A stretch of 64,000 nt of DNA from an uncultured Bacilli bacterium (GTDB lineage Bacteria > Bacillota_I > Bacilli_A > RF39 > UBA660), in assembly GCA_934120715.1 (NCBI GenBank), contig CAKOUW010000004.1, positions 26,781 through 90,780 of the forward strand. The letters are read 5' to 3'. Every line of letters starts with the position of its first letter. Positions within the stretch are counted from its first letter, which is position 1. Under the pieces are notes generated by a model, which was given only the letters and a program-made list of their open reading frames with translations, did no database searches and had not been told where the DNA came from. Below, piece after piece: positions 11,860 through 20,184 of the stretch. Position numbers and translations under genes: made by a program.

Positions 11860-12552
11860 TTAAATAGAAATCATTTTGTTTTCATCTGATACTTTTGATA
11901 AGCCAATAACAAAATCAGAAACATGTAATCCAGTTCCAATTACTATTCCTACTGGAACGAAAAATAACATTATAGTCAATATATATGTTAATATCTTTGT
12001 ATTAGAAAATAAAGGTATTAAAATTACAATTAATAATGGTGAAAATAAATAATATATTAGAATAGAAAGTCTTAATGCGCCACCCTTTTTATCTCCTATT
12101 ACAAATCTATGTATTCCTAAAGTGCCAAAAAACAAAGCCAATAAAACATATTCAACCTTATATATCTTTTTATATTTTCCAATATAGTATTTCCCCTTAT
12201 TTCTTTTATACATTGTTAATCCAACAATTATATTAAAAACTATAGAAATAATTAGCACAATTATTATTATTATAACAGATTGTTTAACCCCACTAAACAT
12301 ATCCTTCATTTCTGCGGAATAGTCTTTGCTTGCACTCGCTGCACCTATTGCTACTATACCTACTATTACAGCATAGGCAGAGTAAGTAAAAATAAGAAGA
12401 AAATCAATTGCAGCCAAAACAACATTTACAATTTTTAAAATTATTTCAAGAGTTTTGTTTGGATTAATCGTATTTTTTAAAAGTTGTATTCCACATCCCG
12501 TACAAAATTTGTTATTCATATCATTTTCTTTTCCACAAACCTGACATTTCAT
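11860..12552 (-). CDS. zinc-ribbon / TM2-domain polytopic membrane protein
   Basis: N-terminus MKCQVCG...FCTGCG. TM2-domain motif GTLGIHRFVIGDKKGG. Several hydrophobic helices. Confidence 0.6.
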   Translation of the reverse strand: MKCQVCGKENDMNNKFCTGCGIQLLKNTINPNKTLEIILKIVNVVLAAIDFLLIFTYSAYAVIVGIVAIGAASASKDYSAEMKDMFSGVKQSVIIIIIVLIISIVFNIIVGLTMYKRNKGKYYIGKYKKIYKVEYVLLALFFGTLGIHRFVIGDKKGGALRLSILIYYLFSPLLIVILIPLFSNTKILTYILTIMLFFVPVGIVIGTGLHVSDFVIGLSKVSDENKMISI

Positions 12553-12556
12553 AAAA

Positions 12557-13372
12557 TCACCTCTTTATTTTTGGACTTCTTCTGTTGCTTCTATAACAAT
12601 AATACATATTATAGGTATTAACATTTATAATTACTGCTTCATCAGTATTTTTTGAAATACCCATTTCATATTTGGATTTATAAACCTCACTTTGACGTTT
12701 ACCATTATTAACAAATTCTTCACCATTTAAAGTAATTTGATAGTAATTAGTATTGTTAGCATAATCGATTTTATGCAAATCTTCAAATTCATAAGTTCCT
12801 ATAACATGATTATTCTCAGCATCATTATATTTATTCCATATAAATTCATTATCATTATTTAGTTGCATTGTTACTATATAATCATCACCTAGTCCAAGCC
12901 CACTAAATCCTTTACAATCCCATGTACCAATAACTGGATTGCTAGGACTCAATTTATATATATATAAAAAGAATATGAATATTGGAATTGCTAAAACTAG
13001 GCTGATTGTATTTAATATTAGACCAATTTTATATTTTTTATTTTCTCTTAGGGCCGATATGCCAATTATAAGTCCGGCTGTTGATAATGGCATGGTAAAT
13101 ATTTGAAAAATAAACACTAATACTAAACTTATAATACCAATAATGAGTGAAATAGTGTTTTTTAAATTATTGTCATTTTTATTAAAGTTTTGGTTATTAT
13201 TAAATCCTTGCTGAGGGCAATTATAATTTTGCTGATTTGTGTTTTGCAAGCCTATATTTAAGTTGCTACTTTGTAAAGTATTGGAGGTATTATCAACAAT
13301 GACTCTATTACCACATATACCACAAAAGACTTCATTTTCTTTTAACTCATTACCACAGTTTTTACAATACAT
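12557..13372 (-). CDS. zinc-ribbon, Q/N-rich linker, TM segments and ectodomain protein
   Basis: N-terminus MYCKNCG...FCGICG, then an N/Q-rich stretch, hydrophobic segments and a C-terminal soluble domain of about 130 aa. Confidence 0.55.
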   Translation of the reverse strand: MYCKNCGNELKENEVFCGICGNRVIVDNTSNTLQSSNLNIGLQNTNQQNYNCPQQGFNNNQNFNKNDNNLKNTISLIIGIISLVLVFIFQIFTMPLSTAGLIIGISALRENKKYKIGLILNTISLVLAIPIFIFFLYIYKLSPSNPVIGTWDCKGFSGLGLGDDYIVTMQLNNDNEFIWNKYNDAENNHVIGTYEFEDLHKIDYANNTNYYQITLNGEEFVNNGKRQSEVYKSKYEMGISKNTDEAVIINVNTYNMYYCYRSNRRSPKIKR

Positions 13373-13442
13373 ACTTATTTAACCCCTTTATTTATATAAT
13401 TATGCTTATCAATATAATAGCTATTAAATTATTCTTCATAAT

Positions 13443-18879: not shown

Positions 18880-18888
18880 GTCATCACC

Positions 18889-20154
18889 TTAACTTCCTAA
18901 CTTTTCCTTCAATACTTTTACGATGTACTTGCTTGCATCTTTAGCATTATCACTGTTTAAATATACATCATGAAATGCCTCAGCAATAGTTTCATCATAA
19001 ATATATTCTCCACTGTTATCTTTGGCTAAGGCATACTTTGAAATAGTGCCTCGCCATTCATCTAAACTCATAGTCGTGTTAGTATCTCTTTTATAGTTTT
19101 CATAAGCCTCATTAATCATAGATAACGAATAATTTCCTTCACTAAAATCGACCTGTAATTTGTAAAGAGTATCAATACTATTATTATTAATTATTAATAT
19201 TGAATTCATCTTATAGTATCTCATCATTGCTAAAAAGGATAAATAGTGACCAAGTTCATGGGCGACTGGGGAGTATATTGTTGAATTTGGTGGGAAATGT
19301 CCTGATGATGATCCCTCTTTTGCACTAGCTTCAAGTTTGCTTTGATTTAGGAAAAATGAGCTGCTTAATAAAACTTGTGTTTTTATGACCCACGGATATG
19401 ATGAATCGGAATCAGATGTGGCAAAATTAAATACTGGCATAAATGCAGCAATTACGCCTCCTTCTGACAATACATTGGTATTTTTCAAAGTTAAATTTGT
19501 AATATAACCTCTAGCACTTGGGTAATTTCTGTATATAACTTCAAATACATTTTCTAACTCTTTTGCAAATTCCACGTTCATTTCGCATAAATTAACAGCT
19601 GTAATGTTATACTTCTCTATTATTTCATCTTCAACTTTTTTAATTTCAGCAGGGCACTTGTCTTTTTGTGATACAGAGTCTTTTTCAATTAATTTGTAAG
19701 CATCACTATTATTACTAATTTTTATGCCACTATATGTATTATCTGTGATAATAGCCGTTTGATATTTTCCTTTTTTGGAATTGCTTTCTTCTTTCTTTTC
19801 AATACTTGCTGTATCAGTTTCATTGTTGTATTTTTCTGAAGAAGAAAAGTAATAATTATATTTTCCACTACTAAATAGTACTACCATTAAAACAACAACT
19901 ACTAATAAACCTACTCCACTTCCAACTCCTATAAATACCATTTTGTTATTATTACTTTTTCCTGTTGTATTTATATTCTGACTAACATTAGGACTTATAA
20001 AAGGCGGATATTGATTTGGATTATTTACTCCATTGTTTTGCTCTAATGGTGGTTGTATAGACATATTGTTAATGGGGATTTCTAAAGGTGATCCACACTT
20101 GTTGCAGTATTTAGTACCATTTTCAATATGATTACCACATTTATGGCAAAACAT
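18889..20154 (-). CDS. zinc-ribbon, Q/N-rich linker, TM and HEXXH metalloprotease-like ectodomain protein
   Basis: MFCHKCG...YCNKCG, TM helix MVFIGVGSGVGLLVVVVLMVVLF, and the VAHELGHYLSF zincin motif in the ectodomain. Start moved from GTG 20166 to ATG 20154 so that it matches the four paralogous N-termini. Confidence 0.55.
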   Translation of the reverse strand: MFCHKCGNHIENGTKYCNKCGSPLEIPINNMSIQPPLEQNNGVNNPNQYPPFISPNVSQNINTTGKSNNNKMVFIGVGSGVGLLVVVVLMVVLFSSGKYNYYFSSSEKYNNETDTASIEKKEESNSKKGKYQTAIITDNTYSGIKISNNSDAYKLIEKDSVSQKDKCPAEIKKVEDEIIEKYNITAVNLCEMNVEFAKELENVFEVIYRNYPSARGYITNLTLKNTNVLSEGGVIAAFMPVFNFATSDSDSSYPWVIKTQVLLSSSFFLNQSKLEASAKEGSSSGHFPPNSTIYSPVAHELGHYLSFLAMMRYYKMNSILIINNNSIDTLYKLQVDFSEGNYSLSMINEAYENYKRDTNTTMSLDEWRGTISKYALAKDNSGEYIYDETIAEAFHDVYLNSDNAKDASKYIVKVLKEKLGS

Positions 20155-20184
20155 ATCAATACTCACTCCTCTCTACTATAAATC

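Follow-up and report, generated by a model that had tools for sequence, protein, structure and literature searches.

A conserved four-gene operon of uncultured gut Bacillota encoding a predicted membrane-tethered zincin and an HtrA-like pseudoprotease

A stretch of 64,000 nucleotides from an uncultured Bacilli bacterium of the RF39 lineage (assembly GCA_934120715.1, contig CAKOUW010000004.1, positions 26,781 to 90,780 of the forward strand; hereafter the window, in whose coordinates all window positions are given) carries, at 11860-20166, an envelope operon of eight minus-strand genes, O1 to O8, with O8 the most upstream. The locus is built from a four-gene core, O8-O7-O6-O5, and a variable tail that reuses a cassette of zinc ribbon, linker and transmembrane (TM) helix, and in at least some 40–50 species of uncultured low-GC gut Bacillota the core operon is kept with the same order and orientation. 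Its gene content, conservation, folds, pattern of catalytic-motif loss and retention, and rearrangement in the window lineage can all be observed. The reading that we favour, at a probability of roughly 0.55, is that the core products form a membrane-tethered extracytoplasmic protease complex which processes surface proteins. The conclusions on structure and evolution are strong ones, and the mechanism is one inferred by reasoning.

Conservation of the four-gene core

The distribution of the operon was surveyed across species with a profile of O6, using one genome per species, which gave 51 loci that were then compared by tblastn and by clustering of open reading frames (ORFs). Flanks of up to 10 kb were taken per locus, so that 755 kb were examined in all, and 31 of the 51 loci have at least 8 kb of downstream sequence. 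All 51 come from metagenome-assembled genomes of uncultured gut bacteria labelled Bacilli, Tenericutes or Clostridia. When 52 related loci and the window are counted together, O6 is present in 53, O7 in 51, and O8 and the O5-type cluster in 48 each, with all four core genes at a coverage of at least 40% in 39 loci. Wherever the contig allows, the core always reads O8-O7-O6-O5 on one strand, between unrelated flanks, and the 4-nt overlap of O7 and O6 is kept in relatives. The same organization can be followed into three divergent O6 relatives, in which a protein of about 400 residues (with a zinc ribbon in two of the three) and a Trypsin_2 protein precede the O6-like gene; the 4-nt overlap is again kept, a ribbon protein usually lies downstream, and the neighbours are housekeeping genes, with no essC among them.

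The original prediction had taken all eight genes as one system, and in this respect it has to be narrowed, as conservation across about 50 species is limited to O8-O7-O6-O5. O4 and O3 are confined to 6–8 nearer loci, O2-like ribbon genes are sporadic, and O1 is absent from 57 of 57 related loci. In some lineages, a second O8-like or O5-like ribbon gene is found upstream of the core: two O8 paralogs lie at 5564-8275 of one locus (L003), and an O5-type gene precedes O8 in two others (L049 and L052). Because of these extra upstream genes, the complement of ribbon proteins varies at both ends of the module.

Operon layout and the zinc-ribbon cassette

The eight ORFs were found with the coordinates and the spacing originally described, ranging from the O7/O6 overlap of 4 nt to a gap of 70 nt between O3 and O2. 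O1, O2, O3, O5 and O8 open with a zinc ribbon, as had been read from the sequence, and Pfam places Zn_Ribbon_1 (PF13240) at each of these N-termini; four of the ribbons score 25.5, 26.8, 26.3 and 28.4 bits against a cutoff of 25 bits, and that of O3, at 24.2 bits, falls just under it. The ribbon cysteines occupy positions 3, 6, 17 and 20 in all five proteins. Conservation of these cysteines extends to the O8 family and to the majority of the O5 family. Four of the five ribbons are followed by a linker of 42-59 residues, consisting to about 70% of Q, N, S, T, P and G, and then by hydrophobic segments.

Among the 76 genes called in the window, five begin with a ribbon and all five belong to the operon; the clustering of ribbons in the operon is therefore real and not due to chance. 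The same holds in the related loci, where 94 of 102 ribbon-start proteins are module genes. The mode is two ribbon proteins per locus, O8 at position -2 and O5 at position +1 relative to O6, and the window is the sole locus with five. Ribbon and disordered linker can thus be described as a reusable anchor cassette, with two copies in a typical locus and five here. The idea of one anchor bearing diverse heads survives insofar as the cassette is reused on unrelated extracytoplasmic heads, but not as a fixed system of eight genes. For instance, O2 and O5 have the ribbon alone in common, and comparison of profiles (hhalign) revealed no relatedness between the ectodomains of O5 and O6. The cassette may bind the module proteins to a common cytoplasmic partner or to one another; a literature search on the function of N-terminal ribbons on membrane proteins gave nothing useful. 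Among proteins of known structure, the ribbon and the start of the linker of O5 and O8 can be aligned to the zinc ribbon at the N-terminus of ArnA chains (PDB 5a8i and 8s05), with E=1e-4 for the O5 family profile and E=0.08 for the O8 profile.

O8, a predicted zincin

O8, the first gene of the core (18889-20154, minus strand), encodes a ribbon, a Q/N-rich linker, one TM helix and an ectodomain of about 290 residues that contains a HEXXH motif. The gene is present as originally proposed, but its start was set at a GTG at 20166 and is most likely the ATG at 20154 (MFCHKCG, giving 421 aa), since the AGGAG box directly adjoins the GTG and the identical proteins in the databases have a length of 421 aa. 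The family is compact (no more than 270 representative clusters in an exhaustive search), and full-length hits align through to the C-terminus of the protein. The HEXXH residues H303, E304 and H307 are invariant in two family alignments and at least 90% conserved in 38 sequences reaching down to 26% identity, a conservation shared in those sequences by the ribbon cysteines and by an ExxAEAxxD motif. This motif, downstream of HEXXH, reads Y-D-E-T-I-A-E-A-F-H-D in full and is invariant or nearly so in both close and distant relatives; its conserved part, E392-T-I-A-E396-A-F-H-D, lies on a predicted helix and supplies a candidate glutamate as third zinc ligand.

An AlphaFold2 (AF2) model of O8 has a mean predicted local distance difference test score (pLDDT) of 62.6, with values of 75-98 in the C-terminal half. 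When this model was searched against the viral structures of BFVD, it matched a phage protein named 'Lethal factor' (E=4e-8, 276 aligned columns, target TM-score (TMt) 0.59), a second phage protein of the same name (E=2e-6, TMt 0.73) and a MuF-like minor capsid protein (E=1.4e-6). In the non-significant list of PDB fold matches, anthrax lethal factor (LF) ranks first (E=0.7) and the Pro-Pro endopeptidase PPEP-1 ranks 17th (E=6). By sequence, classing of the ectodomain was attempted with Pfam, NCBIfam and two PDB profiles and returned ribbon or HEXXH matches only: no Pfam peptidase family rose above threshold in the 21 and 38 O8-family members scanned, and the profiles run against PDB sequences found the ribbon or local metzincin HEXXH matches, the latter at E>=0.18. 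A weak PHROG match (E=4.8e-5) concerns a profile named 'head maturation protease', whose length is likewise 856 residues, and may reflect the same kind of protein as the viral fold matches. Taken together, motif and model suggest that the O8 ectodomain is probably a divergent LF/PPEP-like gluzincin, predicted to be active; membership in M34 proper, the peptidase family of these enzymes, is not established by fold or by profile.

A distant member of the O8 family, of 336 aa and 29% identity, was also seen at 8001-9011 of another locus (L062), flanked by two genes, one of 362 aa and an overlapping one of 180 aa that belongs to no family, with no partners of the size of O7 or O6.

O7, an HtrA-like protein without its catalytic residues

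The second core gene, O7 (17152-18879, minus strand), encodes a protein of 575 aa with a signal peptide and an HtrA-like trypsin-fold domain, preceded by an N-terminal part of about 250 aa without known family and followed by a conserved C-terminal part of about 125 aa. Its description as a secreted pseudoprotease was borne out by a Trypsin_2 match (5e-13) together with loss of the triad in comparison with the genuine HtrA of the window. Across the 19 members of the family, the catalytic His is replaced by N, S, K or T and the Ser by E, Q, G, A or V, while the Asp is kept; single sequences retain the His or the Ser, and none has both. Pfam detects no PDZ domain in O7, which the relatives of the genuine HtrA do possess. 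In searches of the PDB, the O7 profile matches MucD/DegP with E=8e-23 (HtrA, DegP and MucD range from 1e-17 to 1e-23), and the ectodomain of the anti-sigma factor RsgI9 stands on a par with these proteases (1.8e-22). The S1C domain of RsgI9 has been described as a protease-like domain with cellulose as its ligand (PMC12203970). Since both the catalytic His and the catalytic Ser are lost, O7 is probably, by analogy, a protein that binds a peptide or another ligand instead of cleaving it. A weak match to a PHROG family of unknown function (E=1.2e-6) was also recorded.

O6 and O5

In O6, the third core gene (15473-17155, minus strand), a TM helix at the N-terminus precedes three alpha/beta domains in tandem. 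The AF2 model (pLDDT 86.5, predicted TM-score 0.76) agrees with the earlier view of a type II membrane protein of 560 aa, in which the N-terminal TM helix is followed by an ectodomain. One domain superposes on PsbP in a Foldseek search of the PDB (E=7e-6, probability 1.0, TMt 0.55-0.67), and the next fold matches are TplEi/Tli4 (E about 3e-4), Apa, EagT6, LpqN and DcrB; the model thus points to a PsbP/Mog1/DcrB-like fold in at least one domain. O6 has at least 250 homologs, none with an informative name.

O5, the fourth core gene (14593-15453, minus strand), carries the ribbon, a 59-aa linker rich in Q, N and P, one TM helix and a divergent ectodomain of about 150 aa. It occupies the position directly after O6 in most loci, and its family alignment has a mean identity of 24%. 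When its profile was run against the PDB, only the ribbon was matched, to ArnA.

Proposed function and alternative explanations

All four core products are directed to the exterior of the cytoplasmic membrane, and in the favoured reading they would assemble there into one tethered protease complex. O8 would be the catalytic subunit, a single-pass LF/PPEP-like zincin that cuts, and is probably catalytic because its HEXXH...ExxAEA signature is intact; O7 would bind substrate or ligand, as the S1C-like domain of RsgI9 does; and O6 and O5 would act as scaffolds or substrate adaptors. The tight coupling of the genes, with the 4-nt overlap of O7 and O6, would enforce stoichiometry, and O4 to O1 would be lineage-variable add-ons that reuse the cassette. 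The complex would process, shed or quality-control proteins of the cell surface, or possibly host proteins. Surface proteins are proposed as substrates by analogy with PPEP-1 and PPEP-2: the substrates of these M34 zincins are surface anchor proteins encoded by a directly adjacent gene, and some homologs are themselves anchored to membrane or wall (PMC8610288). A more detailed version can be put forward only tentatively and is, as a whole, doubtful. In it, the dead HtrA and the PsbP-fold adaptors would present targets to the tethered LF-like zincin, and the ribbons would couple the assembly to the cell interior; the module would then be a regulated shedding or sensing device of a large clade of uncultured gut Bacillota, with O2, O3 and O1 as interchangeable extra ribbon-anchored heads.

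Several points weigh against a tethered protease complex. Complex formation, protease activity, substrates and the role of the ribbons are all inferred, and no conserved regulator or cytoplasmic partner for the ribbons was found. The N- and C-terminal domains of O7, the ectodomain of O5, and O4 are without fold assignment. As for O8, the model is moderately confident, with the ectodomain ranging from about 50 to 98 pLDDT per 10-residue block; the fold search of the PDB gave no significant match (best E=0.7); the names on the viral matches are automatic and not confirmed; and among Pfam peptidase models, including the LF family, none matched at E<=1 beyond local hits to the HEXXH motif. Moreover, since the distant member described above (L062) stands in another gene context, the LF-like ectodomain family is wider than the module and can work outside it.

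The best of the alternatives, although clearly less probable, is a transmembrane sensing array in which the ectodomains, with O7 as ligand sensor in the manner of RsgI9, would sense a signal from envelope or environment and the ribbons relay it inward, possibly through regulated proteolysis with O8 as site-1 protease and with an output such as the XRE-family regulator that lies divergently upstream of the operon. A small cytoplasmic domain joined by a TM helix to a variable ectodomain does resemble anti-sigma factors, and O7 matches precisely the sensor ectodomain of RsgI9 (E=1.8e-22). However, O7 is secreted and does not span the membrane, and no sigma factor, kinase or conserved regulator is found among the companions of the module. 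The regulator itself (20288-20722, plus strand) was confirmed as a double-HTH protein by two HTH_3 stretches in Pfam, but outside the window it is found beside the module in just three species, the nearest ones (L007, L008 and L010; 3 of 51 related loci), and elsewhere the upstream genes vary. The ribbon, for its part, is a generic PF13240 domain of 23 residues, and a literature search found no output function for it.

Somewhat less likely again is a non-catalytic role in scaffolding or biogenesis of the envelope, in which the HEXXH domain would bind and the module would serve, for example, the wall, an S-layer, lipoproteins, membrane homeostasis or adhesion. This would sit well with a conserved module that is present once in every locus examined and located on the chromosome among housekeeping genes, with the envelope-related descriptions of the PDB entries for DcrB and LpqN, and with the fact that one of the two protease-like proteins, O7, is demonstrably dead. 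What speaks against it is the contrast between the two proteins: while the triad of O7 has been freely lost, the HEXXH and Glu motifs of O8 are kept at 90% or more in a family diverged to 26% identity, as predicted by purifying selection on catalysis.

A conflict system, that is a phage-derived toxin, an immunity cassette or a surface-exclusion cassette, is improbable. It could account for the best fold matches of O8, which come from phages, a MuF-like minor capsid protein among them, for the resemblance of O6 to the TplEi/Tli4 immunity proteins (E about 3e-4), and for a block that moved within a genome and has an abortive-infection-like Abi_2 gene 8 kb away. However, the block is without integrase, no O6 was found in 50,697 records of phages or 72,556 of plasmids, and the Abi_2 gene is part of a synteny with HtrA that is conserved in relatives, while the order of the module is conserved and its divergence across about 50 species looks vertical. 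A phage, plasmid or defence origin was also looked for with PADLOC, which gave no significant match for O1-O8 (best O1, E=0.005 and 14 bits) and only a generic HTH for the XRE regulator, and with PHROGs, which gave ribbon and HTH matches and the weak matches of O8, O7 and O2. No Rfam RNA element was found in the window.

Adjacency to essC and the type VII secretion question

The gene that follows the operon in the window is a genuine essC, encoding 1524 aa with FHA and FtsK domains and scoring 1020 bits against TIGR03928 (cutoff 778). In the window, at 6321-11578, and in four essC relatives of 70-86% identity (L058-L061), the essC locus consists of essC and three small genes of 85, 67 and 69 aa, and no EssA/EssB/EsaA-like gene adjoins essC in these five genomes. 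The 85-aa protein has a mean column identity of 80%; it was considered as YukD/EsaB and was recognised as such neither by Pfam nor by a profile search of PDB sequences, and the 67- and 69-aa proteins gave no WXG100 match. Downstream of essC, the synteny of the three small genes with SpoIID and PLPC is found in all four relatives, and that with Abi_2 and HtrA is kept in the three longer relative loci.

Physically, the operon does stand immediately upstream of essC, as the original prediction had it, with a gap of 281 nt, but this gap carries a strong terminator and a promoter-like site. After O1, terminator-like tandem hairpins (11706-11768, minus strand) fold as RNA with -29.2 kcal/mol (z=-9.7), the second hairpin being followed by AUUUUUAU, a U-tract; a promoter-like TTGTAA-17-TATAAT site precedes essC (11603-11631, minus strand). 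Because the hairpins and then this site lie between O1 and essC, the two are, as far as sequence can tell, probably separate transcription units. The essC promoter region is common to the essC relatives.

The adjacency itself is secondary and derives from a recent genome rearrangement. A block of 13.5 kb (11641-25122), composed of LemA, DUF2207, a radical-SAM/SPASM gene, a 97-aa gene, XRE and O8-O1, lies between Amidase_3 and essC in the window lineage only and not in related genomes; the essC promoter-like site remains outside it. In blastn, window 4140-11640 corresponds to 17429-9929 of one relative (L058) and window 25123-27767 to 9904-7281, two stretches that are about 25 bp apart there, with the same pattern in L059-L061; because its flanks are contiguous in L058, 11641-25122 is an insertion in the window lineage. 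The content of the block is the arrangement of another genome (L007), circularly permuted, and homologs of window 58.7-64 kb are the neighbours of the module in L010. A rearrangement scar is left in the form of a 46-nt repeat of the 3' end of the 97-aa gene: one copy (11768-11813) is 89% identical to its partner (20747-20792), which is the true 3' end, reading ...DFIPRWI* as the end of ORF 20752-21045, and the pair brackets XRE and O8 to O1.

These data bear on the weakest of the alternatives, in which the ribbon proteins would stand in for the missing EssA, EssB and EsaA of a type VII secretion system (T7SS), their ribbons docking on the FHA modules of EssC. Besides the adjacency in the window and the lack of such genes beside essC, it can draw on two loci in which module and essC share a strand, with the module upstream, L042 (with a gap of 2.9 kb) and L045 (about 5.6 kb). 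Genes intervene in both, however: small helical proteins (one with a sub-threshold WXG100 match) and a GNAT in the former, and secE-nusG-rplKAJL, as read from translations, in the latter. Full-length essC is found within 10 kb of the module in just these 2 of 51 loci, even though the downstream flank extends for 8 kb or more in 31, and in none of the nearest species L008 and L010; orthologous operons thus occur mostly without essC nearby. Conversely, the four essC relatives (4/4) have no module within 10 kb upstream but retain their downstream synteny. All four have Zip upstream of essC and three have Amidase_3, directly abutting essC in two; a PHP-domain gene separates the two in L060, and L061 has no Amidase_3. 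Finally, Pfam and NCBIfam detect no T7SS family (EssA, EssB/YukC, EsaA, YukD or WXG100) in O1-O8. With an insertion at the Amidase_3/essC junction that explains the adjacency, a terminator and a separate promoter between O1 and essC, and an adjoining gene, O1, that occurs in no other locus, the T7SS explanation is close to refuted, and the module is not part of a T7SS.

Accessory and neighbouring genes

The variable tail begins with O4 (13897-14571, minus strand), a 2-TM protein with a C-terminal domain of about 150 aa of no known family, whose cluster occurs in 7 loci, all of them near relatives and each time after O5. O3 (13443-13874, minus strand; about 8 loci) consists of ribbon, linker and a multi-TM stub. 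O2 (12557-13372, minus strand) adds to ribbon and linker an O3-like TM region and an ectodomain of about 125 aa; the layout of linker, TM and head foreseen for it holds, but the single TM helix is better read as three, as in O3, a count taken by eye from two broad hydrophobic blocks at residues 69-106 and 114-144. A weak PHROG match of O2 (E=0.0016) is SieA-like. O1 (11860-12552, minus strand) joins the ribbon to a membrane protein that is polytopic and has a TM2-like domain: the ribbon of the proposed fusion is secure, while TM2 (PF05154; residues 132-170, E=6.8e-6) stays just under the cutoff with 26.6 against 27.9 bits. No DNA counterpart of O2 and O1 exists in the nearest species (L007, L008 and L010), where blastn homology ends at window 13469.

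On the other side of the regulator, the stretch 21054-24768 holds LemA together with genes for a DUF2207 membrane protein and a radical-SAM/SPASM enzyme, a trio that is seen again in L007, L038 and L040. The DUF2207 protein ends in a Cys/Gly/Ser repeat (...SSGCSSCGGGCSSCGGGCSSCGGGGSW), encoded by a 21-nt tandem repeat at 22045-22117. In NCBIfam, the radical-SAM enzyme comes closest to the 'ACGX system' maturase (158.8 bits, with the cutoff at 400 bits), and it may modify the Cys-rich tail of the DUF2207 protein. A second cluster, MoxR(AAA_3)-DUF58-vWA-vWA-TPR, adjoins the module in about ten lineages labelled Clostridia (L024, L028, L029, L031, L034, L037, L040, L048 and L050), and is probably subclade synteny instead of a functional partner. 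Both clusters were considered as hidden partners of the module and set aside, as their orientation and presence vary. The Abi_2 gene (3160-4113) is situated between PLPC and HtrA, a synteny kept in L059-L061; because of this conservation in three relatives, it is not a recently acquired defence island.

Comparison with known systems

No named system was matched by the four-gene combination in the libraries searched and in a limited literature search, and to this extent the original statement that the operon fits no described system stands. Neither Pfam nor NCBIfam contains a family that matches O6, O4 or the ectodomain of O8; even so, the folds of O6 and of the O8 ectodomain are recognisable, in a module common to about 50 small-genome gut species. 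If the protease-complex reading is true, the module would represent a clade-specific remodelling of cell-surface or host proteins in abundant uncultured gut commensals, and would give a first functional handle on the architecture of N-terminal zinc ribbon plus TM helix that is very common in Firmicute membrane proteins.

The nearest parallel for O8 is the M34 family, with anthrax LF, PPEP-1 and also PPEP-2. O8 and M34 have in common HEXXH and a downstream Glu helix of the ExxAEAF type, and M34 members likewise occur in Firmicutes, act extracellularly and include some homologs anchored to membrane or wall. O8 differs in giving no Pfam or PDB profile match and in being anchored by an N-terminal ribbon and a TM helix. 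A specificity of the PPEP type is unlikely, since no Pro-Pro pair was seen in three sequences read by eye, which were not scanned.

O7 resembles HtrA/DegP (S1C) and RsgI9 in its extracytoplasmic location and matching core (E about 1e-22) and, like RsgI9, is protease-like and probably non-catalytic. In contrast to them it has neither PDZ nor anti-sigma domain, and it is secreted as a free protein that carries two extra domains. Proteins of the PsbP/Mog1 fold generally bind proteins or ligands in compartments outside the cytoplasm. O6 is superposable on proteins of this fold at an identity of 10-16%, but has three tandem domains and one N-terminal TM anchor and, unlike its PsbP-fold relatives, no link to photosystems, type VI secretion systems (T6SS) or mycobacterial envelopes.

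For the ribbon proteins, TcaA of Staphylococcus aureus offers a similar layout of N-terminal ribbon, TM helix and extracellular domain. The ectodomains are unrelated, and here the cassette occurs two to five times per operon. According to its published description (PMC10611510), TcaA has 454 residues and contains a zinc ribbon domain. With the core of the T7SSb (EssA, EssB/YukC, EsaA, EsaB/YukD and EsxA), the operon shares membrane proteins with ectodomains and a place beside a genuine EssC, but it differs in the absence of any family match, in an adjacency that is not conserved and in separate transcription units; the tempting but wrong lead of ribbon proteins as missing membrane partners of a reduced T7SS is thereby removed. 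The parts of the module are thus known ones, with recognisable folds and a ribbon that is very common in Pfam, and in kind it belongs with extracytoplasmic assemblies of proteases and pseudoproteases.

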